Notes under the pieces: model-generated | The model's input: only the letters and a program-made list of their open reading frames with translations | Database searches by the model: none | Told to the model about the DNA's origin: nothing | Made by a program: the position numbers and the translations under genes | Shown: positions 16,987 through 33,575 of the stretch, piece by piece | How positions within the stretch are numbered: the first letter of the stretch is position 1 | Layout: each line of letters starts with the position of its first letter | Origin: an uncultured Candidatus Hydrogenedens sp. | Lineage (GTDB): Bacteria; Myxococcota; UBA4151 | NCBI GenBank assembly: GCA_902574205.1 | Contig: CACGMS010000004.1 | Span: forward strand, 1-53,359 | DNA length: 53,359 bases | Direction of reading: 5' to 3'

Positions 16987-17801
16987 CGCGCTCCATCTTC
17001 TTTGGTATTCCCCACGGTGGCACGCGTATCCCGCCGAGCGTGGCACCCTTACTCCGCCCAGATATCGACGCACAGTTTGTCCTGAGCCAATCGGACGCCT
17101 ATTCCTTTGAACTCTTCTCAAACCTGGGGACCGACTACCATGCCTTGGAGTGGTCAAGGCTGGTGGTCGATGCCAACCGAACGCCGCGTAGTCGCCGCAG
17201 CAGCGGTCCGGTGCCGCTCGTTGATTTTGATAACCAGCCTTTGTTTATCAAGGGCAAGGAGCCGAGCGAGGAGCAGATCCTTGCACGAATCGGACGATGG
17301 CACGCCCCCTACCACGCCGAGGTCGCTCGTCGATTGGAGGAGGGCAACTATCGCTTGTTTATCGATGGTCACTCCATGGCAGCCACAGCGCCGGCGCGCA
17401 GCCCCGACCAACGTGGCGCACGGCCTCTAGCGATCTTGGGTAATGGCGGCGACGAAGACGGAGAGCTCGCCGCTGATGCGCGCACCTTGAGCTGTCCCCC
17501 AGCCTTCGCTCGCCAGGCGCTCAAGTTGCTCAAGCAAGCCTTTGATAATCATCCGGCGCCGCCAGCGCCTCATCTGGTCTCAAGCCATGGCGAGGTGATG
17601 CTCAACCGGATCTTTCGCGGCGGCTATGGCGTGTGCCACCATAGCAAACCAGAAATGGGGCGCTACGGATTGCAGCTCGAGCTCAACCAGGGCCTGTGGT
17701 GCGACCCCCACGATTTTTGCCTCGACTCTAGGCGCCTTGAGTGGATGCGAGAGGTGCTCAAACAATGGCTGAGCGAACTCGATGCGCTGCGCCGTGTATG
17801 A
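16983..17801 (+). CDS. N-formylglutamate amidohydrolase family protein
   Basis: PHGG, SRLVVDANR, PYH, IDGHSM, F.GGY and LQLELN motifs. Confidence 0.88.
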   Translation: MTRSIFFGIPHGGTRIPPSVAPLLRPDIDAQFVLSQSDAYSFELFSNLGTDYHALEWSRLVVDANRTPRSRRSSGPVPLVDFDNQPLFIKGKEPSEEQILARIGRWHAPYHAEVARRLEEGNYRLFIDGHSMAATAPARSPDQRGARPLAILGNGGDEDGELAADARTLSCPPAFARQALKLLKQAFDNHPAPPAPHLVSSHGEVMLNRIFRGGYGVCHHSKPEMGRYGLQLELNQGLWCDPHDFCLDSRRLEWMREVLKQWLSELDALRRV

Positions 17802-17849
17802 TCGCGCTTGCAACGAGCCCTTCTCGGCACTATCCACGCCCCTACTTGG

Positions 17850-17925
17850 GCCAACTTAGCTCAGTTGGCAGAGCAGCTCATTCGTAACGAGCAGGTCATC
17901 GGTTCAAATCCGATAGTTGGCTCCA
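17850..17925 (+). tRNA. tRNA-Thr(CGT)
   Basis: 76-nt cloverleaf: acceptor GCCAACT/AGTTGGC, D arm GCTC/GAGC, anticodon loop TT-CGT-AA, T loop TTCAAAT, encoded CCA. Confidence 0.96.
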
Positions 17926-17983
17926 AGAATAAGAAGGACTTACGGCTTACGCTGTGAGTCCTTTTTGTTTTGGGCTCCCTTTT
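17876..17983 (+). repeat. 108-bp direct repeat copy 1 (attL): tRNA 3' part + terminator + TGGGCTCCC motif
   Basis: Identical to 25253-25360 from GCTCATTCGTAACG to GGGCTCCCTTTT. Confidence 0.95.
17934..17971 (+). terminator. Intrinsic terminator after tRNA-Thr
   Basis: AAGGACTTACGGC-TTAC-GCTGTGAGTCCTT (13-bp stem with 2 G-U pairs) followed by TTTGTTTT; second copy at 25311-25348. Confidence 0.8.
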
Positions 17984-17991
17984 GGGCTCCC
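17971..17991 (+). repeat. Tandem TGGGCTCCC x2, candidate integrase arm-type sites (left end)
   Basis: TGGGCTCCC at 17971-17979 and 17983-17991; the same 9-mer recurs at 25105, 25116 and 25348. Confidence 0.65.
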
Positions 17992-18022
17992 TTTTTGAGG
18001 CGTCACACGATATTTTCTCGAG

Positions 18023-18925
18023 TTATTCGAAGCGCTCGCAAACGGCGTAGTGATCGACATTAATCGTCACGACTTCATATGCATCCATTCTAAAGGCAAA
18101 GCCTCCTGCCCTGCCACCTTCAGGTAGTAACAGTTGGTCACAAAGCACCCGCCTAACGCGATAGGGGGAGCGGGCTGTACGCCCAATTAGAACTGCGCTT
18201 CCAGTTGGGACGTTAGTATTCAAAGGCCGAAACCCGTCGTCACCATCAAACAGAACTTCGAGCCCTGTTTCTTCTTCGTCTTGATGATCGAACTGAATGC
18301 TCCCTTGGGACGCCCATGTCATGTTGAACTCACGCGCCGGTGAACCGCAGGAATTGTGATTACATTGGCTCCCACGGATCATGCCGGAACATTGATGAGA
18401 CACCAAACGGAAGCCTTCAGGGCACTCTAGGGAAAAGTAGTCTCCGCCAACCAAGGGCGGTCGGATACCACATGTTATACCTCCGCAACTCCCGGCTATG
18501 TTTTGACCAGCGCGCACTGCATCAACCAACGCATTATATGCCTGAACCGTTCGATAGCGCCCCGATTGTAATGTTTTTCTGACTACGATCTTTTCTCCCA
18601 CCGCCGGAGGCGGATCTTGTCGCAGTTGTTCAGCGGCCTCGCTAGCTGCAGCGGCTCGGCAATCTTGAGCGTCTATAACTCCGTCATCATTTTGGTCCAC
18701 AAGCCCGTCCCAGCAATTAGCACCTGGTTCTCCAGCGACACCGGGAGATCCTGGAGGACCTGGCTCCCCTTGGGGCCCTGGATCACCGGCTGGCCCCTCT
18801 TTTCCGGCTGGACCCGGTGGTCCGCGCATTCCATCATCACCATTGTTCCCTCCATTTGCCGGGGGAGAGCAAGCAACAGCGCTAAACGCAATTAAGCCAA
18901 GCCAGAACGTGCGATCAATCTTCAT
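18023..18925 (-). CDS. Collagen-like lipoprotein (element cargo)
   Basis: Lipobox AVAC; (Gly-X-Y)n tract GMRGPPGPAGKEGPAGDPGPQGEPGPPGSPGVAGEPG; NCWD..D.NDDGVIDAQDC; Cys-rich C-terminal domain. Confidence 0.8.
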   Translation of the reverse strand: MKIDRTFWLGLIAFSAVACSPPANGGNNGDDGMRGPPGPAGKEGPAGDPGPQGEPGPPGSPGVAGEPGANCWDGLVDQNDDGVIDAQDCRAAAASEAAEQLRQDPPPAVGEKIVVRKTLQSGRYRTVQAYNALVDAVRAGQNIAGSCGGITCGIRPPLVGGDYFSLECPEGFRLVSHQCSGMIRGSQCNHNSCGSPAREFNMTWASQGSIQFDHQDEEETGLEVLFDGDDGFRPLNTNVPTGSAVLIGRTARSPYRVRRVLCDQLLLPEGGRAGGFAFRMDAYEVVTINVDHYAVCERFE

Positions 18926-19008
18926 AAGTAATCACCCTGTCATCCAACAACCGTTACCGAGACATAATGCAATTCAATGGGAACAACCTAGCCCTTAGTA
19001 ATTTCCCA

Positions 19009-19072
19009 GAGCAAAACGGCACCGTGATGGTGCCATGATGCGGTTTGCGCTCGTCCAACTATCAATAGTCAC
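19009..19072 (+). repeat. 64-bp direct repeat copy 1 (copy 2 at 26283-26346)
   Basis: First 42 bp identical (GAGCAAAACGGCACCGTGATGGTGCCATGATGCGGTTTGCGC); 5 mismatches in the last 22 bp. Confidence 0.92.
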
Positions 19073-19153
19073 TGTGACCATCTCGCAGGCGCGTGCGCGC
19101 ACGCGGATCTGCGCCCGCGCGGCCACTATATGAGTTTACGACAGCGACTATCC
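19009..19153. other. Hairpin-rich non-coding segment, candidate rolling-circle origin / oriT
   Basis: GGCACC-5nt-GGTGCC hairpin; 16-bp palindrome CGCGTGCGCGCACGCG (19090-19105) nested in CGCAG/CTGCG; outer inverted repeat ATAGTCACTGT (19065) / ACAGCGACTAT (19141); abuts the rep stop codon. Confidence 0.5.
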
Positions 19154-20416
19154 TTAGTCCTCGTCTTGGTCCTTGGTCCATCGTGCATCGACGAGTAACT
19201 GGATCGACTCTCGCTGAGCACCTGCCTCAAAACAGCGGTCGAGATCCCTAGCTACCCTTCGGAGCGCCAGCTCAAGTTCGCCTCGACGCCGCTCAGATGA
19301 GCTTCGCAAATAGGGCTGTGTACTTACTCCTGCGAGGGTCAACTCGACCCACCGAGCCGTGGCAACCTTTGGCTTACCTGGATCAATGTGACGGTACCGC
19401 CGTACAGCTTCGACCCACAGTTCATGGGCATCGAGTGCCTGAAGGGAAGTACATGCTATTCCGTCGCGCTGGATCGAGCTCAGCACGGTGCTGCCAAATT
19501 CAAACTCACAGCGCCAAACGCTCGCTTTTCCATCCCAACCATTCCTGCGCCAAATCTTTGGTGCAGTAGCCAGTGGCAGTTCGTCACCCAGTTGAGCGGT
19601 TTTGTTGTAGATCCTCGTGCAGACACCCCCACCCCCGCGCTTACCGATATAAATCGTAAGCCCAGACTTTTGTTGAACCTCAGTCGGGGGATGCTTTCCG
19701 TTGATTGAGCGCGCTCGAGTCACCCATCGCGCCGGGTTCGAATCCTCGTGACTCCAGGCTTGATCACGACACTCGTGATCGACGCATACATCAGCGCGCG
19801 TCACCTTATGTTGACCTGGATCAAGTACAGCCTCACGAGCTGCTGAAAGCAGCACGCCTGCAGCTTGCCACCATTCGACCGCAGCCATCACGGCATCCTC
19901 GAGCCGATCAAACCCCCAGATCCATGACGAGTGCAGATCCATCATCACGGGGTGTATTCGGCTGTTTGGATGACTCCGTGATTTGATGACCAAACAACCA
20001 GGTCCATCGGCGTGACTATTGAGGGTCATCAGCTTTTCGCCAGCACTGACCCGCAACCGTGCTCCAACCTCGGATGGTGATAATCCAAAAGGGTTATGCG
20101 GCTCATCGAGCCGCTGCCTCCAGCCAATCGGATGAGGCGGATTACTGCGACCGTCGTCGGGATAGTGCGCACGCCATGGATCAATAAACTGCGGCCAAAG
20201 CGTATCTAAAGCGGCACCCTGAAATTCCTTCGGTCGAGCACGGCGCAACTCCAACAACTGTTCGGCATAGCTAAACACCTTGGGGTCAACAACATGGTAA
20301 GTCAGCATATTGAAGCGAAGCGCATCAAAGCGAGGCCCGGCGAGAATTCGAAGCGCACGAGCAGAAAAGACGGGTCTAATGTAATACCCGTCGGCTGGTG
20401 TTTCAGGGGGTGTCAC
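19154..20416 (-). CDS. Rep_trans-family replication initiator / MOB_T-like relaxase
   Basis: VTRADVCVD, GLTIYIGKR, TRIYNK (catalytic Tyr motif) and VWRCEFEF, in Rep_trans (PF02486-type) order; ATGA-coupled to alpA. Confidence 0.8.
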   Translation of the reverse strand: MTPPETPADGYYIRPVFSARALRILAGPRFDALRFNMLTYHVVDPKVFSYAEQLLELRRARPKEFQGAALDTLWPQFIDPWRAHYPDDGRSNPPHPIGWRQRLDEPHNPFGLSPSEVGARLRVSAGEKLMTLNSHADGPGCLVIKSRSHPNSRIHPVMMDLHSSWIWGFDRLEDAVMAAVEWWQAAGVLLSAAREAVLDPGQHKVTRADVCVDHECRDQAWSHEDSNPARWVTRARSINGKHPPTEVQQKSGLTIYIGKRGGGGVCTRIYNKTAQLGDELPLATAPKIWRRNGWDGKASVWRCEFEFGSTVLSSIQRDGIACTSLQALDAHELWVEAVRRYRHIDPGKPKVATARWVELTLAGVSTQPYLRSSSERRRGELELALRRVARDLDRCFEAGAQRESIQLLVDARWTKDQDED

Positions 20417-20610
20417 GCATCACCTACGCTTCCGAAAGGTTGGCGAGCTTCCATCCAGGCGAGTACCTCGCCGTAATTCCAACCGACCGAGCCCGCACCG
20501 AGCTGGCGGCGCTTGGGGAAATCGCCCCTACCCTCCATGCGGTAGACGGTGCTGCGGCTAAGCCCGGTGAGATGAAGCACCTCGGGTAAGCGAATGAATC
20601 GAGAAGTCAT
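20413..20610 (-). CDS. alpA: AlpA family regulator / excisionase
   Basis: RFIRLPEVLHLTGLSRSTVYRM...FPK..QLG..SVGW...EV.AW is the canonical AlpA pattern. Confidence 0.93.
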   Translation of the reverse strand: MTSRFIRLPEVLHLTGLSRSTVYRMEGRGDFPKRRQLGAGSVGWNYGEVLAWMEARQPFGSVGDA

Positions 20611-20698
20611 AATCTAGTCCTTTCTGTCGCAAATGCGAGCAGATCGGACCATGTCATCTAACTGGGTGTCGTTGTGGTTGCGACCAGTCGAAAACTGG

Positions 20699-21301
20699 TC
20701 ACTGAATCTGTGACCAGCCCTTCGAGAGGCGTGTTCTCAAGCTTTCCGCCTCCATACCATAGCGACCATTAGCCATGGTGCTTAGCTGGTCAGCGATCAC
20801 CTGGAACTTTGGCTTTCCGTCTGAATGGCGGAACCGGTCACCCTTACTCAGCCTAGCCACCACCTCTGTGAGCAAACCGATAGTCTGCTCCAGTGTCGCT
20901 CTTCCTGGAGCTGTAAGGTTGGACTCAGTTGGAGGACAAATCGATGCAGAAACCAGCACATCTTCACGAGTAATAATGGCACGCTGATGCTCAAAGGGCA
21001 CTGCGAGCACCTCATCACCGTCTTGAATCTTTGCGATCCAAGCAAACTTGTCGCGACGTTTCGCCAACCGTGCGCACTCGTCTTTTGTGAGGGTCACCCG
21101 TCCCGACCAGCTCCCGCCGCGCTCAAGCGGACAATCCGAGATCTGCGCTATGAGCTCAATCTTACCCTCAGCGCCAAGCAAAAGCAGGCGCTCCTCATTC
21201 CACTTCAAACACGCTGCTGCATCAGTCAGCAGCAGGTGCTCCAGTTCCATTCGTACCGCCACGACGCGCCCTCCACTTTTTATCGTGATGGATTTATACA
21301 C
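20699..21301 (-). CDS. Hypothetical element protein upstream of alpA, possible C-terminal HTH
   Basis: 200-aa ORF co-oriented with alpA-rep; C-terminal QVIADQL...GMEAESLRTRLSKG; its N-terminal coding sequence has a diverged copy at 22367-22467. Confidence 0.65.
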   Translation of the reverse strand: MYKSITIKSGGRVVAVRMELEHLLLTDAAACLKWNEERLLLLGAEGKIELIAQISDCPLERGGSWSGRVTLTKDECARLAKRRDKFAWIAKIQDGDEVLAVPFEHQRAIITREDVLVSASICPPTESNLTAPGRATLEQTIGLLTEVVARLSKGDRFRHSDGKPKFQVIADQLSTMANGRYGMEAESLRTRLSKGWSQIQ

Positions 21302-21336
21302 CCACGGTACGACATGAACTTTAGTGGATCATAATG
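21201..21336 (+). repeat. 136-bp diverged repeat copy 1 (copy 2 at 22367-22502)
   Basis: Gap-free manual alignment, about 100/136 identical; each copy ends on the ATG of a + strand cargo gene. Confidence 0.88.
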
Positions 21337-22344
21337 AAGCGTATTCTCCTCGCTGCCACGCTATTATGTTTGAGCTGCGAAAATTCCAAACCACGAACTT
21401 TTGACGAGTGCCGTTTGCAAGCAATTAAGCATTCAAATCGCGATGCGATGTTGGTTGCCCTCGCTATATGCGGTCAAATATTTCCCCAACCCATTGATGC
21501 TGGATTGAAAACGCAAGGTTCTGACGCGCAGAAACTACCAAATGGAGTATATTTCTATCCAAGTATGAACGTCCAAAAGCTCTCATGTCAGACACTAAAA
21601 ATTACCAATGGGTTACTGCAGCCAAACAGCTTTAAGAATCGGGTAGCATGGTGCGCTTCGGGGAGTCGGTTTGAAATTGATGGCAAAGGTAAACTGACCT
21701 TCACTTGTATTGATGAAGCTAGCCATAACGGTGAAGAATCTACCTCTGTAGAAAGCGCTAAGATTATCGCAAACGGTATTATAAGCTTACGGCCAGATAC
21801 TAATGCAACCTACCAAGAGACATTTTTTAGTACTCTTGCTGACTGTCAGCGCAGTTTAGACAGCAACGGCTGGCGTGAGACATGGGTCAAAATTAAAGCT
21901 GAGCATGAGCAGAAGCAGAGGCTTGAGACAGAGAAGAAAATTCAGGCAGTCAAAGATGCAGAAGCAAAGGTGCGCGCGCAGGAACGAGAGCGCTTGCAGG
22001 CTGATGCCGAAGCAACCAGGCGAAATCGGCCAAGCTTCATTATGGGACCATACAGCAAAGCGTCACAGCGTTGCTTGTCTGCTGGCGGTGAGCTTAGTAA
22101 CCCCTACCATAGTAAGAATGTTCGCAAGCAAATCTTAGCAGGTAGACGTATGCTGGACCTTAAGGGTTACGATGTACCGGCGCCCGTAGCATTCCTTGGG
22201 AGCCAGTATATATCCGTGATAAATTCACGGACCTATAAAATAGAAACCGTCTGGGTTGAAGGCGTCCCAAATCCCGACCCAGCCGAATTTAGAGCAATCA
22301 TAGACAGTCCACTCTATGCATGGAATTGCTCCAAGACCCCCTAG
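21334..22344 (+). CDS. Cys-rich lipoprotein, two domains joined by a coiled coil (element cargo)
   Basis: Lipobox-like CLSC; N-terminal domain is paralogous to 23382-23954; C-terminal domain resembles the C-terminus of 25452-26312. Confidence 0.8.
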   Translation: MKRILLAATLLCLSCENSKPRTFDECRLQAIKHSNRDAMLVALAICGQIFPQPIDAGLKTQGSDAQKLPNGVYFYPSMNVQKLSCQTLKITNGLLQPNSFKNRVAWCASGSRFEIDGKGKLTFTCIDEASHNGEESTSVESAKIIANGIISLRPDTNATYQETFFSTLADCQRSLDSNGWRETWVKIKAEHEQKQRLETEKKIQAVKDAEAKVRAQERERLQADAEATRRNRPSFIMGPYSKASQRCLSAGGELSNPYHSKNVRKQILAGRRMLDLKGYDVPAPVAFLGSQYISVINSRTYKIETVWVEGVPNPDPAEFRAIIDSPLYAWNCSKTP

Positions 22345-22366
22345 CGGTCTTCGCCATTGACTTTGG

Positions 22367-22502
22367 CACTTCTCACGCGCTGCCGCATTAGTGAGCAGCA
22401 GATACTTCAACTCCATTGGTGCAGCCACGACGCACCCTCCCCTTTTGAGCATGAAGCGCTTATACGCAAGTGGTATGACATGAACTGTTGTGAGGTTTAA
22501 TG
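22367..22502 (+). repeat. 136-bp diverged repeat copy 2; on the - strand a truncated copy of the N-terminus of the 20699-21301 gene
   Basis: YKRFMLKRGGCVVAAPMELKYLLLTNAAA vs YKSITIKSGGRVVAVRMELEHLLLTDAAA. Confidence 0.88.
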
Positions 22503-23354
22503 AACAAACTCGCAAAGCGACACAACGCTTACGACTGCCTGCCAGTTGAACTCATTGACGAGATCAAACGATACTTCCCGGCTGGAACGCTTTACCTACC
22601 GGTCGGGCAAAGGCGAACTGAAGATTTACCTTCTCGCAACCGAGAAATCCGAAAGAAGTATCGACAATATAAACGTTCAAAGCACCGCCGAACCCGGAAA
22701 TCGCCGATCAAAAGATTGGCGAATGAATACCAACTATCCCGACGTCAGATATCAAATATTTTGAAGCAATATTCAGACGAAGACTTAGCAGACAGAGATG
22801 CAGAGATACGACAACGATACGGTTGGTATCAAAACTCCAAAATCGAGCGCAAGCGGACGGATCCAATCGGCGTACTAGCTGCTGAATATGAACTTTCGAC
22901 CAATATGATAGAAAGCATCATAGGAGATGATGACTGTAAAGAGGAGCCTTTTGAAGATGAGAATCTGAACGAGGAAGAACATGAAGATGAAGACTTCGAT
23001 GAAGAAAATATTGAGGATGAGGACTTCGACGAGATTGAACTTACAGACATCACAGCTGCTACTCTAATGGCGCTACTCAAGGGAAAGCCAGATTTACCCA
23101 GATTTTCTAGTTACCATCCTAAAAATATCGTCGCTCATTTCGATCCTCTAGATGACGAGGACGGCGGCAGTTCTTATGAGTTTCTTGTCGAGAAACTTAA
23201 GCATAGTTATCAACTGAATGACTTCCAAACTTATCAAAACCTTTGTGATACTCTTGTCGAGTATGGACAAGGTAATCCGGATGAACATGCGCTAATGCAC
23301 ATCATTGACGAGTACACAGAAGACCCTGTCAAAGTAGACGACTCTGACAGATGA
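22500..23354 (+). CDS. Mor/CD3324-like transcription regulator with duplicated HTH and acidic tail
   Basis: LPVELIDEIKRYF..GTLYLP...RNREIR...IKRLANEYQLS.RQI.NIL; second unit RDAEIR...IGVLAAEYELS.NMI.SII; E/D-rich tract. Confidence 0.75.
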   Translation: MNKLAKRHNAYDCLPVELIDEIKRYFPAGTLYLPVGQRRTEDLPSRNREIRKKYRQYKRSKHRRTRKSPIKRLANEYQLSRRQISNILKQYSDEDLADRDAEIRQRYGWYQNSKIERKRTDPIGVLAAEYELSTNMIESIIGDDDCKEEPFEDENLNEEEHEDEDFDEENIEDEDFDEIELTDITAATLMALLKGKPDLPRFSSYHPKNIVAHFDPLDDEDGGSSYEFLVEKLKHSYQLNDFQTYQNLCDTLVEYGQGNPDEHALMHIIDEYTEDPVKVDDSDR

Positions 23355-23381
23355 AAACTTTTGAATCGATTCGGACTATTG

Positions 23382-23954
23382 TCACTCAAGCGATTTGAGA
23401 CAGCCTACCTCGGTATTGTGCAGAAACGATTCCTCTGGGCTGTTTTCCCAAGCGATCAATACTCCCTTTGGAAGAATTCTCGCATTTCCCAACCGCACAT
23501 GATTTTCATCGCTGTTGTACGCTTTGCATGTAAACATTAAATTCCCCGGAGGGTGCTCTTCAAAGCCGCCGCCTCCATAACAAAAACCCGGCTCATAATC
23601 TGAAATCGCCCCCCGACCTCCAATAAAAAGTAGGCTACACTTTCTACTGCCTTCCTTCCTCCATTTGGAACCGGGACTATAATAGTACTTTCCAGTTGGC
23701 AGGACGACGTTCGAAGCATCGATATTTGGAGGAAACAGCTCCTCACAAATCGTCTTCGCCGCTGAAATAGCTTTCGCTGAATCATTCTCCATCGCCTTCA
23801 ATAAGCAACTTTGGCGGTCTGTAGGCGCCTTGGAACAGGCACCTACCATCGCCAGAATGGCAAGCAAACCAGCAAAAGCTTCAACAAGCTCATGACTATA
23901 TTTTGGTGAGACTAAACCACGGAGTTTATGACTAAATTTTGGAAGTCGGACCAT
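23382..23954 (-). CDS. Cys-rich lipoprotein (element cargo), start uncertain
   Basis: Lipobox VGAC; Cys spacing and motifs match the N-terminal domain of 21334-22344; the ORF-track start overlaps the int 3' end, so the real start may lie further in. Confidence 0.7.
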   Translation of the reverse strand: MVRLPKFSHKLRGLVSPKYSHELVEAFAGLLAILAMVGACSKAPTDRQSCLLKAMENDSAKAISAAKTICEELFPPNIDASNVVLPTGKYYYSPGSKWRKEGSRKCSLLFIGGRGAISDYEPGFCYGGGGFEEHPPGNLMFTCKAYNSDENHVRLGNARILPKGVLIAWENSPEESFLHNTEVGCLKSLE

Positions 23955-25102
23955 TTTGTCAGCGCCTCGGTCTTCTCATCATCATACGTATGCTGATCAT
24001 AGCGCGCTGTCACCCCTTGCTCCTTATGGTTCAGGATCTTCTGAACAACTAGCCTAGGCACCTTGAGGCGCGTCATGTGCGTGGCTGCCGTTCGCCGCAA
24101 ATCGTGTGAAGTAAACTTCTCTACGCCAAAGTGCTCGAGGCTGCGGCTGATGCCATGCGTCAGCGACGTCACCAGGATCGGCTTGTCGGCAGCAATCGAG
24201 AACAGCCACTCATCCGAGGCGGACAGTTCTCGCGCACGCTCGATGATTTTCGCTGCGGTATCGGTGATGGGCACGCGATGCCGCACCCCGTTTTTTGTTC
24301 GCTCTGCAGGGATGGTCCACCACCCCTCTTCTAAGTTGAACTCCCGCCATCTAGCACCGCAGACCTCTCCGGGCCGCTGAGCCGTCATCAGAATCAGACG
24401 AAAGGCTAACTGCAGGGTCTCACTCATCCGAGCACTAGAAAGGCGCTCTAAGACGATTCTGAGCTCCGTCTCGCTGAGCCGTCGATCACGAACTTTGGGA
24501 GGCGTCGGTGCTCGCACCCGATCCGCCGGCGAGACCTCGAGCAACTCCTGTTCAATCGCCCAACTAAAGAGCTTTTTGAGCAGCCCTAAGGTCTTGCGAG
24601 CCTGAGCAGGTGCTCGCCCATCAATACGCTCAATCAACTCCCGCACTTCGCGTCGCTTAATCCCGGCGGCGACGCGGCTACCCCATACCGGAAGTAGATC
24701 GTGATTGAATTGGCGCTGGTCCTCTCGCCAGCTGCGCTTCTTCGGCTTGGCGTGTTTCTCCATGTAGAGTGCAGCAAGCTCTCGAAATTGCAGCCCTTTG
24801 CGTGAGCGTGCATCGACGAAGTGGTGATCAACCTTTGGATCCAGACCTTGAGCGATGAGTAGCCCCGCTTTGGCAAAGGCGGCGTTGGCATCGGCGACGC
24901 TCATTTCGGGGTAACGCCCGAGCGTCAGCCAGCACGATCGACCCTGGCGCTTGTAGCGTACGACAAAGGTCTTCACGCCCTTTGGTGTGATTCGCACGCC
25001 CAAGGTCCCGCGACCATTGGTACGCACAACCATCACGTTCTGACGTTTGGTGCCGGCTTTGAGTTTGCGCACAAAGACATCGGTTAATCGCGTCTGGCTC
25101 AT
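23912..25102 (-). CDS. int: P4-like tyrosine recombinase/integrase with N-terminal arm-binding domain
   Basis: GVRITPKGVKTFVVRY...LTLGRYPEMS (arm-binding domain); catalytic R (TAQRPGE), K (TKNG), HDLRR, LNH and Y (ARYD). Confidence 0.95.
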   Translation of the reverse strand: MSQTRLTDVFVRKLKAGTKRQNVMVVRTNGRGTLGVRITPKGVKTFVVRYKRQGRSCWLTLGRYPEMSVADANAAFAKAGLLIAQGLDPKVDHHFVDARSRKGLQFRELAALYMEKHAKPKKRSWREDQRQFNHDLLPVWGSRVAAGIKRREVRELIERIDGRAPAQARKTLGLLKKLFSWAIEQELLEVSPADRVRAPTPPKVRDRRLSETELRIVLERLSSARMSETLQLAFRLILMTAQRPGEVCGARWREFNLEEGWWTIPAERTKNGVRHRVPITDTAAKIIERARELSASDEWLFSIAADKPILVTSLTHGISRSLEHFGVEKFTSHDLRRTAATHMTRLKVPRLVVQKILNHKEQGVTARYDQHTYDDEKTEALTKWSDFQNLVINSVV

Positions 25103-25104
25103 TC

Positions 25105-25124
25105 TGGGCTCCCCTTGGGCTCCC
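25105..25124 (+). repeat. Tandem TGGGCTCCC x2, candidate arm-type sites overlapping the int RBS
   Basis: At 25105-25113 and 25116-25124; the - strand reads GGGAGCCCAGA-ATG into the int start. Confidence 0.65.
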
Positions 25125-25252
25125 TTTTCAGGGTGCGCTTTGGTGATCTGCCCTAGGACGGCCTGACACGCCGTTTATTCATAAACCCGATATAATAGGG
25201 GCTGTGTAGTCCATTTATGGAATCTGGTGACACACGAAGAAACCAAACTTGC

Positions 25253-25360
25253 GCTCATTCGTAACGAGCAGGTCATCGGTTCAAATCCGATAGTTGGCTC
25301 CAAGAATAAGAAGGACTTACGGCTTACGCTGTGAGTCCTTTTTGTTTTGGGCTCCCTTTT
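25253..25360 (+). repeat. 108-bp direct repeat copy 2 (attR): tRNA-Thr 3' fragment + terminator + one TGGGCTCCC
   Basis: Identical to 17876-17983; lacks the tRNA 5' part. Confidence 0.95.
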
Positions 25361-25451
25361 TGCGCCAACCGATAGGGTGAGGTGGCAATTTGCATAAAAC
25401 CCTAGAGTCATCGATTATACCTGTGGTTGCTTTCCCCAACTGTTGGTTTAA

Positions 25452-26312
25452 ATGCGCTACTGGTTTGTGTCACTGCTCCTGTTTATTTCTCATGGACGAG
25501 CCCTCGCTGAAGACTCAAAAAAACCAACTTTACTCTTGGTACCCGTCGTAGCGCCTAAGCCGCTTGCTAACGATGCTACGACGCTAACCAATCTTATTAG
25601 AGTCGAAATCGGTAAAACCTCAAAACACCGTCTCGTCAGCCCAGAAGAACTTGGAGCTATAGACAAAGAACTAACGCGGCAGTTGTCAGGTGGCTGCGAC
25701 GAGGCAAGCTGTATAACAGAGGTTGGCGGAGCATTAGGTGCCCAGTATTTAGTATCAGGATCGCTAGGAAAGCTGGGTAAAGTATATGTTCTTACGCTAA
25801 AACTCGTCGACATTGAAAAGGTCACAAGTATCGGTAACTCCTCGACTACCGCCTACACCCTGGAAGACTTTATTGGTAAAGTCGAAGAAGCTACATTAGA
25901 CCTGTTCGCGATTTCCAAGTCATCACCCACCGATCCAGAGCCGTCGCCGAAAAGACTCTGGCGCAAGGCGCCTAGCTCGCAAGTTAACAACACAAACCAA
26001 AGTAATGCTCTGCTACCGGGGCCCTTCTCAGATGCCGCGCGCAGATGCCAAGACGCGGGCGGTAAGCTATACAACATCGGCGACGCTCGCTGGGCTAACG
26101 GGCCTGTCCGCCGCAAAACGACTGTGGGCCCTGTAAGTTACCGCACAGGCGGCAATATAATCACTATTATGCCGGACGGTGATCAATTCACTATTTCGGC
26201 CATCGGAATGGAAACCGATTTCAGGAACAAGCTCGAGAGCGAAAATGTTTACTGGCATTGCTCAATCATACCTTATTTACATGAGCAAAACGGCACCGTG
26301 ATGGTGCCATGA
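25452..26312 (+). CDS. Secreted protein: CsgG/TolB_N-like (DUF2380-like) domain + small Cys domain
   Basis: Signal peptide; GCDEASCITEVGGALGAQYLVSGSLGKLGKVYVLTLKLVD; C-terminal GPFSDAARRCQDAGGKL...WHCS; stop codon lies inside the 64-bp repeat. Confidence 0.75.
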   Translation: MRYWFVSLLLFISHGRALAEDSKKPTLLLVPVVAPKPLANDATTLTNLIRVEIGKTSKHRLVSPEELGAIDKELTRQLSGGCDEASCITEVGGALGAQYLVSGSLGKLGKVYVLTLKLVDIEKVTSIGNSSTTAYTLEDFIGKVEEATLDLFAISKSSPTDPEPSPKRLWRKAPSSQVNNTNQSNALLPGPFSDAARRCQDAGGKLYNIGDARWANGPVRRKTTVGPVSYRTGGNIITIMPDGDQFTISAIGMETDFRNKLESENVYWHCSIIPYLHEQNGTVMVP

Positions 26313-26346
26313 TGCGGTTTGCGCCCATCCAGCGATCCATAGTCAC
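26283..26346 (+). repeat. 64-bp direct repeat copy 2
   Basis: 59/64 identical to 19009-19072. Confidence 0.92.
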
Positions 26347-26412
26347 CATTGAGACGGTTTGACCAACGCTGGTCCACTCATCATAAGTTATCAAGCCAGT
26401 GAGGACGTACTT

Positions 26413-27264
26413 ATGAGTTGGTCGACATGTCAAAACGCCGCCGAATTCGTGCGTCAACGCCAGGCAGAGTTGCATCGTCACGAGTCCAAGAATTGCCTGG
26501 CATGGGGCGCAATTGAGCGCTGGGAGTCGACCCCAGCCGACACCCCCAAGGTCCGATTTCTCACCTACAAGGCTGAAGCCGACGTCACCGCTCACGCGCT
26601 GCTCAGCGGCGATGAAGAGCACCTTATCCTCGGTGCCATGCACCCCTACGAAGCAGAGCAACTGATTGAGTTCCTCAACCGAAATGGCGTGCGCCTGCGA
26701 ACCATCGAAGGCCCGCAAGCCATCGCCGCCCAATTCCTATCCGATTGGACAAGCGCTCACGAGCTCAGCGTCGAGCAGCGCATGCGTCAAGGCCTGTACG
26801 AGCTATGCTCGGTGACCTTACCCGACACCCAAGGCGGCACGCTCGTTCAAGCAAGCGAGTCGCATCACAAGGACCTGTATGCCCTCATTCATGGGTTTCT
26901 CAACACCTTCGACGAGCCGTGGATGACGCCAGCGCAAATCGACGCAAGGGCTCAACGCTTTATTGAGGAGCGCCGAGCGTACCTATGGCAAATTCCGAGC
27001 GGTGAGCTGGTCTCGCTCGCAGCGGTCGTTCGAGAGACGCCAAATACCGCAAGTATTTCTTGGGTCTTTACGCCTCCAAAGCGGCGACGAAAGGGCTACG
27101 CTGGCTGTTTGGTGGGATCGCTCTCGCAAGCGCAGCTCGATGCGGGGAAGTCCGCGTGCAACCTGCACACCGACCTCGATAACCCGACCTCGAACGCCAT
27201 CTATCAGCGCCTCGGCTATCGCATAATCGCCCGTTCACTGCGTGCCCAGCTGAACGACAACTAG
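26413..27264 (+). CDS. GNAT family acetyltransferase
   Basis: ISWVFTPPKRRRKGYAG (acetyl-CoA motif A) and LHTDLDNPTSNAIYQRLGY; GAGGA RBS before the ATG at 26413. Confidence 0.9.
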   Translation: MSWSTCQNAAEFVRQRQAELHRHESKNCLAWGAIERWESTPADTPKVRFLTYKAEADVTAHALLSGDEEHLILGAMHPYEAEQLIEFLNRNGVRLRTIEGPQAIAAQFLSDWTSAHELSVEQRMRQGLYELCSVTLPDTQGGTLVQASESHHKDLYALIHGFLNTFDEPWMTPAQIDARAQRFIEERRAYLWQIPSGELVSLAAVVRETPNTASISWVFTPPKRRRKGYAGCLVGSLSQAQLDAGKSACNLHTDLDNPTSNAIYQRLGYRIIARSLRAQLNDN

Positions 27265-27427
27265 GCACCGATGATCCGCTGACAACTCGGTATCTTGAAC
27301 TCCTAAAACGGCGGACCCTCGGTGGAATGGCACCCGCTCTCTACACGTCTTAAGCGCCCTACGCTTTTCGTCGCTGCGATTTGGGTGCACCCTCCTTATC
27401 GACGCATCCCAGCGCAGTACGAGGTTC

Positions 27428-28864
27428 ATGATGAGTGTGCGAATGCTTCTTTCTTTGCTCCTGCCCGTCGCCAGCGCAGCCAGCTGCACCCAAGCGACCA
27501 CCCCACAAAGTCCAACGATCCCCTCGCAGCCCGAGGCGGGTCAGCCGACCGATGCTGCGCTCAAACCACGCGACGCCTCTAGCGCAACACCAGACGCTCG
27601 CGCGGACTCAGGCGCGATCGATACGGCGCGCCCTGCAGATATCGGCTTGGCCGACGCGGGAGCGACAACGGACGCGGGCGACGCCGGCGCAGAGCCCGCC
27701 GAACCGGTCAATCTTATCCTCAACCCAGGCTTTGAGGACGGCGACGCCCATTGGAACGTCTGGGGCGGCGCCCAGATCGTTCAATCGAGAACCCATGAAG
27801 GCGAGCGCTCGCTCCAGGTGACTCGGGTCAACGGCGCCGAACAACGCGTCGAGAACCTCGAGCCAAACACGACCTATCGACTGACCGGCTGGGCGCGCAC
27901 GGACAACCCCGACCACCCCATCAGCATCGGCGCCAAATATCATGGCAACCCTGAGGTCCGAGTCCGTTTCACCGAGGAGGCCTACAGCGAACAGTCGGTT
28001 GAGTTCAGCACCGGCTTTGGGACCACCTCCGCGATCGTCTACGCCTACAAGCACAACGGGGAGTCGCTCGCCCACGCCGACAGCCTCTCGTTGATCCGCG
28101 TGGGTCCAGCCTACGACGCCCCCATCTGGGCTGATGAGTTCAACGAAGAGGGACGCCCAGACCCCACACGATGGGATTTTGAAGAAGGCTTCGTGCGCAA
28201 CGAGGAATTGCAATGGTACCAACCCAATAACGCCTTTCAAGAGGGCGGGCACCTCATCGTCGAAGGCAGGCGTGCGAACCGGCCCAACCCCAACTTTGTC
28301 GCCGGCTCAACCGACTGGCGAACTCGGCGAGCGACCATCGACTACACCTCGGCGAGTCTGCGCACACGCGATCGCTTCGACTGGCAGTACGGACGGCTGG
28401 TGGTGCGAGCAAAAGTCACCAACGCCACAGGAACCTGGCCTGCCATCTGGACACTCGGCGTCGACTGCCCTTGGCCGTCCAACGGCGAGGTGGATGTGAT
28501 GGAAAATTACGGCGGGAACATCCTGGCGAACTTTGCTTGGGGTACCAATCAAAGATGGAGCCCGCGTTGGGACTCGTCGCGCACCCCGGTCTCTTCCTTC
28601 GACCCGAACTGGACCGAACGCTTCCATATCTGGGAGCTCGATTGGACCGAGGACCGCATGGCGATCTACCTCGACGGTCAGCTGCTCAACGATCGGCCCT
28701 TAGACAATACAGTGAATGGATCGGCAGAATGCGCTGGGCAAAACCCGTTTCACCAGCGCCATTACCTGCTGCTCAACCTGGCTTTAGGCTCCAATGGCGG
28801 AAGCGTCGACAACCTCATGTTCCCCACCCGCTACCTGGTCGACTACGTGCGCATCTACCAGTAG
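27428..28864 (+). CDS. Lipoprotein with CBM4/9-like domain + GH16 (beta-1,3-glucanase-like)
   Basis: Lipobox-like AASC; NLILNPGFE; IWADEF, WPAIW, GEVDVME (ExDxxE), LLLNLALG and VDYVRIYQ motifs. Confidence 0.9.
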   Translation: MMSVRMLLSLLLPVASAASCTQATTPQSPTIPSQPEAGQPTDAALKPRDASSATPDARADSGAIDTARPADIGLADAGATTDAGDAGAEPAEPVNLILNPGFEDGDAHWNVWGGAQIVQSRTHEGERSLQVTRVNGAEQRVENLEPNTTYRLTGWARTDNPDHPISIGAKYHGNPEVRVRFTEEAYSEQSVEFSTGFGTTSAIVYAYKHNGESLAHADSLSLIRVGPAYDAPIWADEFNEEGRPDPTRWDFEEGFVRNEELQWYQPNNAFQEGGHLIVEGRRANRPNPNFVAGSTDWRTRRATIDYTSASLRTRDRFDWQYGRLVVRAKVTNATGTWPAIWTLGVDCPWPSNGEVDVMENYGGNILANFAWGTNQRWSPRWDSSRTPVSSFDPNWTERFHIWELDWTEDRMAIYLDGQLLNDRPLDNTVNGSAECAGQNPFHQRHYLLLNLALGSNGGSVDNLMFPTRYLVDYVRIYQ

Positions 28865-29055
28865 CGATCAGCGGTCAAATAGCACATGACGCTTTGCGCT
28901 GCTGCCCAGCACTGGGTGCTTCGCTTCGGCATCGCATCAGCGACGACCAAACTGTATACATCAAGCCGAGATTACATCGCTTTTTATCGGTCATTTTACT
29001 TATTTATATACTCACAAGTAGATTATAAGAACCCTCTTAATCGGGGGATCGATCT

Positions 29056-30675
29056 GTGCGCTTTGTTTCAATCATGGTTCTCATCACTGTTGGTGTCGCA
29101 TGCGGCCCGCCGACAAACGCTCAAAATCGGACGACCGAATGGTCGGGCGAGCGCGCCCAGGGCTGCGTACAAGATTCGGACTGTGCTGCTAATCAGATCT
29201 GCTTAGCGGAGTTTGGTCGGTGTAAGTCAGTAGAGCGTGCTGATTGTAATCTTGAAGCAGGCGAGTTCTGTGCCTGTGCATCGGACGCCGAATGCCCAGA
29301 TGGTGCGTACTGCAATGGCGAAGGACTCTGTGAACTCAACGCAACATCTGCCCCCAATCCAGTCCCCCCGCCTCAAAGGTGCTTGCAAAATGCTGACTGC
29401 GCTGCTGATCAGTTATGTGTCGATGGCGCCTGCGTCGGTCAGGCGACTCCTGAGTGTCGCACGGATCGTCAGTGCCCAGGCGGTCAGCGCTGTGTTGAAG
29501 CGCAGTGTGTCGAGGGCTCTGGGTGTCGCTCCGATCTGGACTGCGATGCCCAGCAAATCTGCCGAGATACCGCCTGTATAACCGTAGCCTGTCGTCAGGA
29601 CAGTGACTGTGCAGGTGAGACTCGGTGCCAGGATAATCAGTGCATCACCCCCCCCGCCGAAGATGATCACGGTGACACGCTTGATACGGCGACGCGCGTG
29701 GAAGACTATAGCACCACACGCGGCGTGCTCAACACCAACGACGATGTCGACGTCTTCGTCTTTCGAAGCTCAATTCGAGGAACTTATCGCGCTGAAACCA
29801 CAGGAGCAAGCGATACCCTGTGTACCTTTCTCGACGCCAACGGTGGAGAGCTCGCCAACAATGACGATGACGGGGACAATCTCAACTGTCGACTCGAAAC
29901 GGTCCTAGAGCGCGGCGTGACTGTCTACCTGAGAGTGGCTGGATTTGAAGGGCGAACCGGCGCGTACACTATGGTCTTGCGCCGCCCAGAGCTTCCGCAA
30001 CCGGATGACCATGGAAATGACTTAGCCAATGCGACGAGCGTCAGCGACAACAGCGTCACCGCGGGTCGGATCGAGCAAGCTGGGGACCGTGACTACTTTG
30101 TATTCGAGACAACCGCATCGACAAACTATACGCTTTACACGACCTCGAACAGAGATACCCACTGCAGCCTATTTGATAGCAACGGGCAGCTTTTGGCGCA
30201 GGACGAAGGAAGTGGTTTGGGCGGCAACTGTCGTATCGCTGAAGCGCTGACGGGCGGACAACGTTATGGCTTCTTGGTGCGTCATAGTTCGCCAGTCGGC
30301 ACCGGCGCCTACACCCTTCGCTTCGAACGCTCGACGCGAGATCAAGATGACCAAAGTGACGAGCGGCGCAACGCGCAGATGGTGCAGTTGCCTGCTCGGA
30401 TTGAAACTCGCCTCGAGACCCGTGACCGAGATTGGTTTAGCTTTACTACGGGTGTAGCCGGAGTGTACCGGATGGAGACGCAATCAGGACTCGATACATT
30501 TTGCCGACTTGAGGATGCTCAGGGTACTCAGCTGGCTACCGATGATGACGACGGTCAGGGGATCAACTGCGGAATCGAGATTCATTTGAGCGCAGCAGAG
30601 ACCTACTTCTTTATGGTGCGAGGCTATACCTCGAATATCACAGGCGACTATGTCGCTTTGATCGAAAAGCGCTGA
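29056..30675 (+). CDS. Lipoprotein with Cys-rich repeats and three PPC-like (pre-peptidase C-terminal) domains
   Basis: Lipobox VAC; several C..D.DC....C....C repeats; three DDHG/DDQS...D.D.F...DT.C...NDD...NC units. Confidence 0.82.
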   Translation: MRFVSIMVLITVGVACGPPTNAQNRTTEWSGERAQGCVQDSDCAANQICLAEFGRCKSVERADCNLEAGEFCACASDAECPDGAYCNGEGLCELNATSAPNPVPPPQRCLQNADCAADQLCVDGACVGQATPECRTDRQCPGGQRCVEAQCVEGSGCRSDLDCDAQQICRDTACITVACRQDSDCAGETRCQDNQCITPPAEDDHGDTLDTATRVEDYSTTRGVLNTNDDVDVFVFRSSIRGTYRAETTGASDTLCTFLDANGGELANNDDDGDNLNCRLETVLERGVTVYLRVAGFEGRTGAYTMVLRRPELPQPDDHGNDLANATSVSDNSVTAGRIEQAGDRDYFVFETTASTNYTLYTTSNRDTHCSLFDSNGQLLAQDEGSGLGGNCRIAEALTGGQRYGFLVRHSSPVGTGAYTLRFERSTRDQDDQSDERRNAQMVQLPARIETRLETRDRDWFSFTTGVAGVYRMETQSGLDTFCRLEDAQGTQLATDDDDGQGINCGIEIHLSAAETYFFMVRGYTSNITGDYVALIEKR

Positions 30676-31166
30676 ACGGGGTCGGCGAATATTCATGACT
30701 CGTCGGCTGGTCAGTGTCCTTGGCTGCAATGCTCGTGGCCCATTTGAGCTCGCCATCAGCGTATGTTAAGTTCGTTAATTGAGTGTCATGAGAACCTTGT
30801 CGCTTACCCTGCTCACCGCCACGGGTTGCGCCGACATCACACCCATTGAAGATGGGAACACCTTCGGTCAAACTGTCACCCTGAAGGACTTGATCACAAG
30901 CTGCTAACTGCTCGCGTCCCAGTGCTCTGAAGGCAGGTCTGGCTAAGCACAACGTGACACCCTACCCCGTTGCCGATGTGTTGATGACCCACGGAGATGC
31001 TGATCAGCTGGTCTCAGCCCACACGAGCTCTGCTGCCGGTCTGCAGCCCCTTCCTGATTTCGCAGCGACAGTAGCCTCGCCTTAGCCTGACCGCTGCAAG
31101 CTATCTTTGATCTCCTAACGATGCAGTGATACGACACGTTGCCTTCGGAGATGAGACGGATCACAC

Positions 31167-32000
31167 GTGGCTAATGCGCTCAAACTCTTCGCTCTGCGAC
31201 AAGCCGCACGGCTCATCTATTGTGTTCGCAAGATTCACGATCTGTTCTGGAAGTCGGTCGCAGACCTCGTTGAACTTACTTTGAGCGAAGAACAAGCCGC
31301 TGCGTGGACTCGTTTTCACTATTCGAGTCGCTCGGGACAATACGTTCACAATGGCTACAACAACAGTGGTCTCTATGATTGGGAGCGGCGGGCGATCGAT
31401 GACTACTTTCCCAAGTCACCTGCTCGCATCCTCCTCACAGCGGCTGGTGGCGGACGAGAAGCGATTGCATTAGCACAGCTTGGCTATGAAGTCGTTGCCC
31501 TCGAGCCTGAGGAGCAGTTCTATTTCGAGCTCACTAAGGCTTGCGCTGGTGACGAGTCCTTGACCGCCATGCAAACGAGCCATGAGCAGTTGATCGCCAC
31601 CCCGCCGACGGATCTCCCCTGCTTTGATGGCGTCGTCATTGGCTGGGGAAGTTTCTCACATTTGCCCAAACGCGACGAGGTGTATGCGTTAATGGAAACG
31701 CTTCAAGGACTCTGTCCCAAGGGTCCGATCCTCACCAGCTTCTTTGTGCGTCAGCCTCCGCACCAACTGAGTCGCTCTCGCCAAAGACTGCGCCAGTTTA
31801 TCAAATCCTGGTCACCGATTAAGCGAACCCTTGATGGCTATTTGCGGTTCGATTATCGATTGGGTTTAGTGCGCACCTATGACCAGCAGTGGCTCGACGA
31901 ACTTGCAGCCCATGTGGATTGCCATGTCACGACCTTTGAGCCTTATCCCTATGGTCATGCGGTTCTTGTACCCAATAAGAATACCGTTGATGACGCCTGA
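31167..32000 (+). CDS. Class I SAM-dependent methyltransferase-like protein
   Basis: RILLTAAGGGREAIALAQLGYEVVALE (motif I/II); FDGVVIGWGSFSH. Confidence 0.75.
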   Translation: MANALKLFALRQAARLIYCVRKIHDLFWKSVADLVELTLSEEQAAAWTRFHYSSRSGQYVHNGYNNSGLYDWERRAIDDYFPKSPARILLTAAGGGREAIALAQLGYEVVALEPEEQFYFELTKACAGDESLTAMQTSHEQLIATPPTDLPCFDGVVIGWGSFSHLPKRDEVYALMETLQGLCPKGPILTSFFVRQPPHQLSRSRQRLRQFIKSWSPIKRTLDGYLRFDYRLGLVRTYDQQWLDELAAHVDCHVTTFEPYPYGHAVLVPNKNTVDDA

Positions 32001-32023
32001 GCGCCTGTTGCTCACGGACTTCT

Positions 32024-32515
32024 TTGGTGATTGAATCGCTCATGCACTATCTGTCTACCGCCTTCGTTGTGCTCCTTCTCGCTAGCCCGACTTTAGCTGA
32101 AGGGCTGGAGCCGTTTCCTGGGGTCGAGTACCGTCGCGTCAAAGCGTTCTATTTCAACGCCAAGATGGGTCGCCCTGAATGCATGACGCCGCTCAATAAA
32201 GATGGCTCGCTCTGCTCGTCGGTTGAAAGACCTGGCAAGCTGCTCTCGAACAAACAGACCACTCGCCTATTCAAAACACTGAACGAACCGACGTCCTTCA
32301 ACCAGTTCTTCGCCAAGTGCTTTATCCCGCATCACGCCTTTGTCCTCTATGACGCTAAAGGCAAAGCCGTCGCCCAAGTCTCAGTCTGCTTTGAGTGCAA
32401 CCGAGTCTCAATCGAACCCAGCCAGCCCAACAAGCGCTCACTGACGCAAGAGGGCCAGCGTCAACTTCAAACCTTATGCAAAGAGCTTGGGTTGAAAGCG
32501 TGCACCGGCTCTTAG
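32024..32515 (+). CDS. Hypothetical secreted protein with CFIPHH...VCFEC motif
   Basis: Signal peptide after MHYL; clustered Cys/His residues. Confidence 0.65.
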   Translation: MVIESLMHYLSTAFVVLLLASPTLAEGLEPFPGVEYRRVKAFYFNAKMGRPECMTPLNKDGSLCSSVERPGKLLSNKQTTRLFKTLNEPTSFNQFFAKCFIPHHAFVLYDAKGKAVAQVSVCFECNRVSIEPSQPNKRSLTQEGQRQLQTLCKELGLKACTGS

Positions 32516-32711
32516 GCTGCTGCGCGCCTCTCGGTGGACTTGACTCGACTCCAGACATCTTCGCACATAGAGCGACAGATTCACGAAACGAGCAACCGTA
32601 GTGAAGAGGCGATGCGAAACACTAGCCGTACGAGTCGCTAAATAATTAAATTTTTATACATTTATCGCCGAGTTCAAGGACGAATTTGTCAATGGTATAC
32701 CGATCAACAAC

Positions 32712-33575
32712 ATGCGAACGCTAACTGATCACGAAATGAGTTCACAATGGACCCATCGTCCGACTCAAACGCACCACCGCATCCATATCGGCAGATTTAA
32801 GCGACCGGTTCTACTCGTATTCGGAATCGAAGGGTTGTTCCTGGCACTGAGTATAGCACTCAATGAACTGACCTATTTTATCGTGGGCGCAGCAGGAGTT
32901 CTTGGCGGCTACTTTCTTTGGGCGCGCACTCGTCGAGCCAAAGATGCGCGCACGAACCTCGAAGCCGTTCGACTTTTAGGCGCTGGCGAATTCGATAGAG
33001 CCATTCGACTGTTTGATGAACTGTGTCAATCTCCGGCTAATGGCAGTACCTTAGCCGTATTCCTCATGAACCGCGGCACGGCAAGCTTGTGTAAAGGTGA
33101 ATTTGAGGTCGCGTTGTCCATCTACCACGAGGTCCTTCGAGCCGAGCGCGGTATCGCCCGCGGTGTCTTTAAGCTGCACGGCGATATCTTTCGCGCTCGA
33201 TGCGCCGAAGGCCTCGCTGTGTATGGTGAACTGGACGCTGCAGAAGCGATGCTCGCCGTACACAAGACGCATGACGCACAAGCTCGGGCTGGAATGCAGC
33301 TCCTGGCACGTTCGGTCATCGCACTACGGCGAGGCGAACGACAGGCCGCTTGGACCCATTTGACCACGCACTGGGCGAGCGCTGAATCCATACAGACCGC
33401 CACTGAACTCAAAGCACTCCTGATCCTTCGTGCCTTTGCCGCCGACCACGCTGACCCCATCTGCAGTTCGATCACTACTCATGATCTCACGCGCAACCGC
33501 TGGCTAGGCACCCACTGGGTTGAAATGGCTGATTTTCTCAGCAACTTTGACTCCCACCAAACAGCGAAAGACTAA
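32712..33575 (+). CDS. Membrane-anchored TPR-like protein
   Basis: Two TM helices, then TPR-like helices (GEFDRAIRLF; GEFEVALSIY). Confidence 0.65.
   Translation: MRTLTDHEMSSQWTHRPTQTHHRIHIGRFKRPVLLVFGIEGLFLALSIALNELTYFIVGAAGVLGGYFLWARTRRAKDARTNLEAVRLLGAGEFDRAIRLFDELCQSPANGSTLAVFLMNRGTASLCKGEFEVALSIYHEVLRAERGIARGVFKLHGDIFRARCAEGLAVYGELDAAEAMLAVHKTHDAQARAGMQLLARSVIALRRGERQAAWTHLTTHWASAESIQTATELKALLILRAFAADHADPICSSITTHDLTRNRWLGTHWVEMADFLSNFDSHQTAKD

Follow-up and report, generated by a model that had tools for sequence, protein, structure and literature searches.

Accretion, the building up of mobile elements on decayed elements, is described in the sections of PMC5704250 devoted to it, and the part of bioRxiv 2020.12.28.424599 that treats insertion order has new elements pushing older ones outward. 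The same sections of PMC5704250 define a CIME by its retention of both attL and attR, and record that Rep_trans/MobT proteins occur in small accreting elements and that Rep_trans proteins can act as relaxases. For CTX phage, the relevant passages of PMC4439123 describe how free copies are produced between tandem prophages in a rolling-circle-like manner.

The locus considered here lies in the window, by which we mean the whole 53,359-nucleotide stretch of DNA that was analysed. It comprises a 7,377-bp element between two att copies at a tRNA gene, followed by a stub (25253-26346) that begins with the second att copy. Our main reading, to which we assign a probability of roughly 70%, is that this stub is the deletion remnant of a close sibling and was present before the 7,377-bp element integrated in front of it. 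The features on which the argument draws are, by coordinates and strand:

17850..17925, plus strand: intact target gene for tRNA-Thr(CGT) (ARAGORN), with the same upstream host genes in the related genome G002 and in locus L030
17876..17983, plus strand: attL, the first att copy, with the tRNA 3' half, the terminator and the start of the P' arm (108-bp repeat)
17971..17994, plus strand: P' arm, two arm units 12 bp apart
18023..18925, minus strand: slot-1 cargo, collagen-repeat lipoprotein of 300 aa (Pfam Collagen, E 1.9e-8; N-terminus lipoprotein-type by eye)
19001..19072, no strand: backbone repeat, copy 1
19058..19158, no strand: GC-rich hairpins enclosed by an imperfect inverted repeat at the rep 3' end, candidate origin region, in copy 1 only
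19154..20416, minus strand: rep, predicted Rep_trans-family rolling-circle initiator of 420 aa, uninterrupted (profile matches and model)
20413..20610, minus strand: AlpA-family protein, likely an excisionase or regulator (Pfam Phage_AlpA, E 1.7e-18)
20699..21301, minus strand: 200-aa backbone protein, an ORF with no Pfam or NCBIfam match
21334..22344, plus strand: slot-2 cargo lipoprotein of 336 aa (blastp)
22294..22492, minus strand: internal sibling stub, in which the 200-aa gene recurs as a 5' fragment with its upstream region
22500..23354, plus strand: cargo gene with a weak Mor/CD3324-like HTH region (matches below cut-off) and an acidic tract
23382..23954, minus strand: cargo, a lipoprotein-like ORF of uncertain start
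23912..25102, minus strand: tyrosine integrase (Int) with an arm-binding domain, 396 aa, uninterrupted (PF13356, PF22022, PF00589)
25105..25127, plus strand: P arm, two arm units directly ahead of the integrase start, placed as in the control elements
25253..25360, plus strand: second att, a junction att with the P arm on its left and the presumed sibling's P' end on its right
25452..26312, plus strand: stub cargo gene for a 286-aa exported protein with a host-family LpoB-like domain and an element-type C-terminal domain
26275..26346, no strand: backbone repeat, copy 2
26413..27264, plus strand: GNAT acetyltransferase gene to the right of the stub, of host-like composition

Judged from its sequence, the interval 17876-25360 is a tRNA-targeting tyrosine-integrase element, with an intact Int, direct repeats of a tRNA 3' end and inner arm doublets. 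Between the att copies it holds genes for the collagen lipoprotein, Rep, AlpA, the 200-aa protein, three cargo proteins and the integrase, for which an 84% identical relative exists (P0006). Among its ORFs we find no genes for primase-type replication or for capsid/terminase interference. The Rep profile, built from a 70-sequence alignment, matches the solved initiators 4CIJ, 4CWE and 4CWC (E 8e-8 to 7e-7), the structure model (pLDDT 80.5) matches the same entries, and both Y270, the tyrosine of the catalytic motif, and K272 are invariant in the 70 sequences. What the element encodes is, by sequence and by model, an intact-looking Rep_trans rolling-circle initiator with the expected fold and tyrosine motif. 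Only two relatives above 50% identity were found; a search of 301 genomes of the phylum gave a match only in G000, the deep alignment matched in 4 of 401 genomes at E 1e-8, and the alignment run against genome contigs gave no match.

Viral contigs gave no close relative in three DNA-pattern and four protein scans, the last scan giving three loci at 25-30% identity. A search of one open-access library returned, among the matches listed, no paper that joins Rep_trans and AlpA, a result that speaks for that library and does not imply absence from print. Distant Rep relatives adjoin tRNA-Gly genes in L154 (4189-12250, genome G059) and L155 (G238), and in L154 a 56-bp att repeat occurs in copies about 8 kb apart. 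Two further islands were seen in passing: one at a tRNA-Asn gene (G000:C28, 8984-20822) combines a P4-type integrase with an att repeat of 24 bp, and in L066 (14458-19124, genome G001) a tRNA-Leu(TAA) gene is followed by an unrelated integrase of P4-like type along with primase/helicase-like genes.

The direct repeat that bounds the element (17876-17983 and 25253-25360) is 108 bp long and 100% identical, starts at position 27 of tRNA-Thr(CGT), ends 58 bp beyond the CCA and contains a terminator-like hairpin and one arm unit. An earlier note on this DNA had described both the 58-bp extension, with its terminator and arm motif, and the presence of one arm unit fewer at the second copy, and both observations hold: the second att has one perfect arm unit vs. 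two at the first, with a degenerate second unit 13 bp further on. Within the window the arm 9-mer is confined to five places (17971, 17983, 25105, 25116 and 25348), and the whole 2.0-Mb assembly has eight copies. At L030 (455-495) three perfect arm units stand in a row, and the unit number ranges from 1 to 3 among copies of the site. The arm-doublet pattern was also searched in six genomes and was not above its reversed control, the sole exact match being the tRNA site of G003.

To judge these features we use 80 loci of related integrases (33-45% identity) as controls, 15 of which have a tRNA and 10 both att copies, the other 70 being unscorable. In all ten, tRNA position 26-32 marks the start of the identity block. 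Its strict end is 0-17 bp downstream of the tRNA in these controls vs. 58 bp here; with mismatches allowed, the blocks of L071 and L127 reach about 45 bp at 86-90%. An arm doublet follows the tRNA in 10/10 controls, and 8-mers common to the post-tRNA region and the DNA before the integrase are likewise found in 10/10, so that the reading of the doubled motif as an arm site is supported; in four of the five tRNA-Thr controls the arm motif is close to the window's. In L071, an unrelated tRNA-Pro element from a Nitrospinota MAG, nearly the same terminator follows both att copies (0/300 shuffles), which indicates that the terminator travels with elements. These arm and terminator controls support the earlier view that an element's left end follows the second att. 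Such left ends seem to be common behind attR, as a doublet lies there in five of ten controls (background 8%) and a doublet together with a short post-tRNA motif in four of ten (background 0.5%, with the motif defined post hoc). We label this short motif following the tRNA end IHF-like.

The second component of the stub is a copy of backbone sequence. The backbone repeat is 59/64 identical between 19009-19072 and 26283-26346 (64/72 over the longer span), includes a 42-bp perfect run and gives a BLAST E of 4e-19 against the genome; copy 2 begins 922 bp after the second att, in agreement with the 59/64 copy that the earlier note had placed about 0.92 kb past this site. No comparable backbone repeat lies within 2.3-4.9 kb beyond attR in the ten controls, where one 36-bp match in L110 was found, and a stub of this kind is therefore not a routine outcome. 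The 200-bp repeat region gave chance matches only in five genomes of the family. Readings of the repeat as an integron attC or as the arm cluster of a second integrase were dropped by eye, since the ends do not match.

The single ORF of the stub, which is without Int or Rep, takes its last 9 codons and stop (25452-26312) from the 64-bp repeat, just as had been noticed earlier. Its product had been called CsgG-like, a label that does not survive, as the protein matches LpoB (Pfam E 1.6e-5); the companion statement that it is unrelated to the collagen lipoprotein stands. The N-terminal domain has 16 further tblastn matches in the host assembly. The C-terminal domain resembles that of the element's cargo protein 21334-22344 (E 2e-5), and a search for its relatives returned only itself, with Atlas matches below 0.9. 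The GC3 of the gene is 0.51 vs. 0.66-0.74 in four flanking genes. A 4-base loss that would remove two stops and let the gene enter the repeat fits by eye and was set aside, the gapped extension not being significant (p 0.58).

The most informative relative is G002, a 93%-complete genome of another species in the same genus, with 69% DNA identity in the flank. Its site is empty: the same upstream genes and the tRNA are followed, after a decayed terminator and arm, by a GH16 gene about 120 bp past the tRNA, with no element, stub gene, backbone repeat or GNAT gene at the site and no relative of the integrase in the genome. The case of an element-free relative carrying 25303-26346 as normal sequence after the tRNA had been raised in the earlier note, and it divides in two: G002 lacks 25361-26346 at the site, and it keeps the first 58 bp as 51/58, with decayed arms. 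Since these 58 bp are present there without an element, they are by themselves no proof of a sibling. A terminator and arm-like units are found at the tRNA of G003 and G004 too, and with G002, L029 and L030 this means that the extra 58 bp could have belonged to the site for a long time, with attP sharing them. The remainder of the stub is, by the same comparison, not normal host sequence in G002, the sole relative with a fully assembled site; no conspecific element-free strain was found. The GNAT gene (26413-27264), with a host-like GC3 of 0.69, marks the deletion junction and sits at a different locus in G002, so it has been relocated in one lineage.

The retained 51/58 bp of G002 also give some ground to a reading with no sibling at all, in which attP includes 58 bp of host terminator and the gene and the repeat arrived by separate small duplication or capture. 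Identity blocks are described as reaching into terminators in the part of PMC10111431 that deals with fis, and the N-terminal domain of the stub gene does belong to a multi-copy host family. This account requires three independent coincidences, namely the perfect arm unit, an element-type C-terminal domain combined with low GC3, and a backbone repeat on the same side of the slot, and locus L029 shows the same order with another gene; we regard it as highly improbable.

L029 is one of two loci, with L030, that a metagenome scan returned. In its 1,321 bp an unrelated gene is directly followed by a decayed att with two arm units. Next comes a gene for a lipoprotein-like protein of 191 aa, after which 29 bp match the repeat's left side (18990-19018; 0/300 resamples) and another exported-protein ORF follows; a P arm and rep are absent from these 1,321 bp. 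In L030 the tRNA and three arm units are followed by a different lipoprotein-like gene. The defined variable slot proposed earlier is thus supported: from the sequences of these loci, albeit in small numbers, the stretch that separates the P' arm from the backbone repeat is a real slot in which other loci hold other exported-protein genes.

Retention of the att core and one perfect arm, together with the similar module in L029, might suggest that the stub is a non-autonomous mini-element or CIME moved by Int or Rep in trans or in cis. BLAST of the 60%-complete assembly, following the earlier call for a search, finds two att copies only and no third. In 26347-35000 there is no convincing right att, matches to the P arm are at chance level only, and the best match to the tRNA half is 24 nt long, on the wrong strand and 7.8 kb away (34142-34165; 3/100 resamples); synteny with G002 resumes at the GH16 gene. 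The stub lacks integration and transfer genes as CIMEs do, but it has neither a third att nor a P arm, and it is not a CIME because a CIME keeps both att sites and the stub has no right att. For the same reason, the lack of a right att and P arm, Int is not expected to excise the stub alone. The earlier suggestion of a mini-element using Int in trans is not supported by these results, and the wider class of readings is largely refuted, with very little probability left to it. The deletion product, which the earlier note had offered beside the mini-element, is the part of that proposal which stands as the best reading.

The integrity of the contig bears on all of this. The host genome is a 60%-complete assembly of 141 contigs, and the 100% identity of the 108-bp repeat would allow the contig to merge two forms there, a stub-only chromosome and the element either as a free circle or as carried by another strain. 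Six read runs contain 5-8% of the words and none contains half. Contigs from four of them were compared, all of low depth, so that regions without coverage, for example the host flanks in X4, are uninformative. A contig of run X1 spans the collagen gene, the repeat and rep with 4 differences in 408 bp; X4 covers 214 bp of the stub gene without differences and has other contigs on int and 23680-23815; and a contig of X2 follows 19008-19213 and differs to its left (51 letters, depth 3). In these thinly covering runs no contig crosses the second att (25253-25360) or the 26346 junction, and none shows an att-by-att joint or a repeat-joined form. In run X1 (16636-26786), at low depth and in unlinked contigs, host genes are 85-91% and element genes 96-99% identical. 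A merged contig seems doubtful to us, as the window is one gap-free contig without N and X1 joins the collagen gene to the repeat and rep. The stub is needed in any case, since copy 2 exits into the GNAT gene through unique sequence and must therefore exist in some chromosome even if the contig merges forms.

A different role for the stub, which we consider unlikely, is that of a retained cargo reservoir from which Rep copying from repeat to repeat, or RecA crossing, frees a 7,274-bp circle with swapped cargo. The inter-repeat interval of 7,274 bp contains the full set of backbone genes, three perfect arm units and an att that has both its P and its P' arm, so that such a circle is geometrically possible. 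The Rep_trans fold and invariant catalytic-motif residues predicted for Rep would suit it, as would the X4 contigs on int, 23680-23815 and the stub gene. Copy 2 stops 8 nt inside the left arm of a stem that copy 1 could form beside rep (arms 19058-19075 and 19141-19158, 78%), with 42 bp perfectly kept, and L029 likewise loses similarity near the repeat motif. Replication of CTX phage between tandem copies, in the account of PMC4439123, and the swapping of cassettes that lie between conserved flanks of rolling-circle plasmids, in those of PMC5703833 and PMC5037232, serve as precedents. Against this, the contigs of the four thinly covered runs contain no repeat joint. The core hairpin of copy 1 (19016-19036) has the score of a terminator on the minus strand, placed where it would end the rep operon, which explains it without an origin, and the folding of the candidate origin does not stand out from that of shuffled sequences (z -0.9 to -1.6; for 19058-19158 z -1.57, not significant). 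The five mismatches of the 64-bp repeat all fall within the 22 bp closest to the putative origin, five loci of distant Rep relatives show no conserved DNA in the corresponding repeat and origin region, and in pT181-family plasmids, as PMC5703833 presents them, the origin lies inside rep and not behind it. The sequence had earlier been called "origin-side"; the repeat is real, and the label is best reduced to that of a candidate origin region.

The sharper proposal that the 72-bp repeats are the start and stop sites of Rep, which would free a 7,274-bp circle with the second surface gene as Int frees a 7,377-bp circle with the collagen gene, strikes us as improbable. If it were true, each of two routes out of one locus would carry its own cargo variant, and stubs of the L029 kind would form a library of swappable surface genes across the population. 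A Rep nick site in the repeat would mean a CTX-like route of cargo exchange in an excisable element. The swapping reading predicts two circle junctions, of 7,377 and 7,274 bp, in one strain.

To return to the deletion remnant, a smaller structure of the same kind lies inside the element. The sequence 21201-21326 recurs at 22367-22492 (126 bp, 75% identity), and this internal stub encodes aa 2-57 of the 200-aa protein at 46% identity and sits before another cargo gene. As the internal stub (22294-22492) is the expected leftover of a deletion inside two tandem siblings, a backbone fragment joined to cargo would be found twice here, which suggests that it is a recurring by-product at this locus. 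By eye, a contig of run X2 carries a third variant of this sequence as a loose end at 22425. In the 21334-22344 protein the N-terminal part resembles 23382-23954 (blastp E 1.6e-9) and the C-terminal part 25452-26312 (E 2.5e-5). The three cargo proteins are made from shared modules, 21334-22344 being A+B, 23382-23954 A, and 25452-26312 a host LpoB-like domain plus B; neither module has a family match.

Tandem integration, as first proposed, is the best history for these observations, and the order of events that we infer is as follows. A sibling would have integrated at the anticodon loop of tRNA-Thr(CGT), and a one-ended deletion would then have taken everything from 26347 to its right att. 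The deletion is needed at least once because a crossing between two whole siblings at the repeat leaves a whole hybrid, with exchanged cargo but no stub. The present element would next have entered the att beside the tRNA, with the stub pushed outward. This order agrees with the accretion described in PMC5704250 and bioRxiv 2020.12.28.424599, and with the defective P4 elements of PMC13586616 whose cargo is intact. The position from the P' arm to the repeat holds different exported-protein genes in different copies. Int is predicted to be unable to excise the stub alone, and recombination at the 42-bp perfect match may now and then transfer the cargo of the stub. Retention or a recent origin fits better than long decay, as the stub gene is uninterrupted and its 214 bp in X4 are without differences.

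Read as a remnant, the stub is a clear but ordinary illustration of how an island at a tRNA grows. The evidence supports tandem accretion, which is a known route by which genomic islands grow. It also indicates that small elements of this type deliver and reshuffle genes for exported proteins and lipoproteins, and that the reshuffling has also joined a host envelope domain to one from the element. The X1 contigs, unlinked and of low depth, hint that the element moves between sister species.

Among the described systems closest to this arrangement is the tandem accretion of IMEs and ICEs in the sections of PMC5704250 already cited, where a new element enters the att beside the target gene, a decayed relative lies in tandem and the internal att is chimeric. 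It differs from IME/ICE/CIME accretion in that the stub is without a right att, that no conjugation or coupling protein is present and that the host is marine; neither an oriT nor a helper for conjugative mobilisation was identified. The element resembles tycheposons and PICI-like marine elements, as characterized in the corresponding part of bioRxiv 10.1101/2020.12.28.424599 and, for VEIMEs, of bioRxiv 10.1101/2022.07.26.501625, in being small and tRNA-targeting, with a tyrosine integrase and AlpA, and in the partial tRNA copies and degenerate remnants that accumulate beside the tRNA. Unlike these marine elements, it would replicate by a predicted Rep_trans initiator. Slots between conserved backbone, rapid swapping, chimeric cargo and defective elements with intact cargo recall the P4-like satellite hotspots of PMC13586616, in the passages on their cargo, whereas the cargo here consists of exported-protein and lipoprotein genes, not of recognised defence systems, and no P4 core genes were identified beyond Int and AlpA.

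With CTX phage (PMC4439123, as above) the locus has in common an integrated rolling-circle initiator between two copies of a sequence near a candidate origin; unlike CTX, the element encodes an integrase of its own between two att sites, should excise normally and carries no phage genes. Its swappable gene beside conserved rep-end sequence is similar to the DSO-qacC-SSO cassette of staphylococcal rolling-circle plasmids in the relevant part of PMC5037232, although those are free plasmids with identified origins and one border of the slot here is an integrase arm. There is some chance that the stub lets the element swap cargo. Rep_trans is absent from the 51 ORFs of at least 150 aa in the ten control elements, which carry primase, helicase or DUF927/3631/3987 genes, or nothing recognisable, and it is the combination of a backbone repeat beyond attR with a rolling-circle initiator in the element, neither of them seen in these controls, that makes the locus less common than ordinary accretion.
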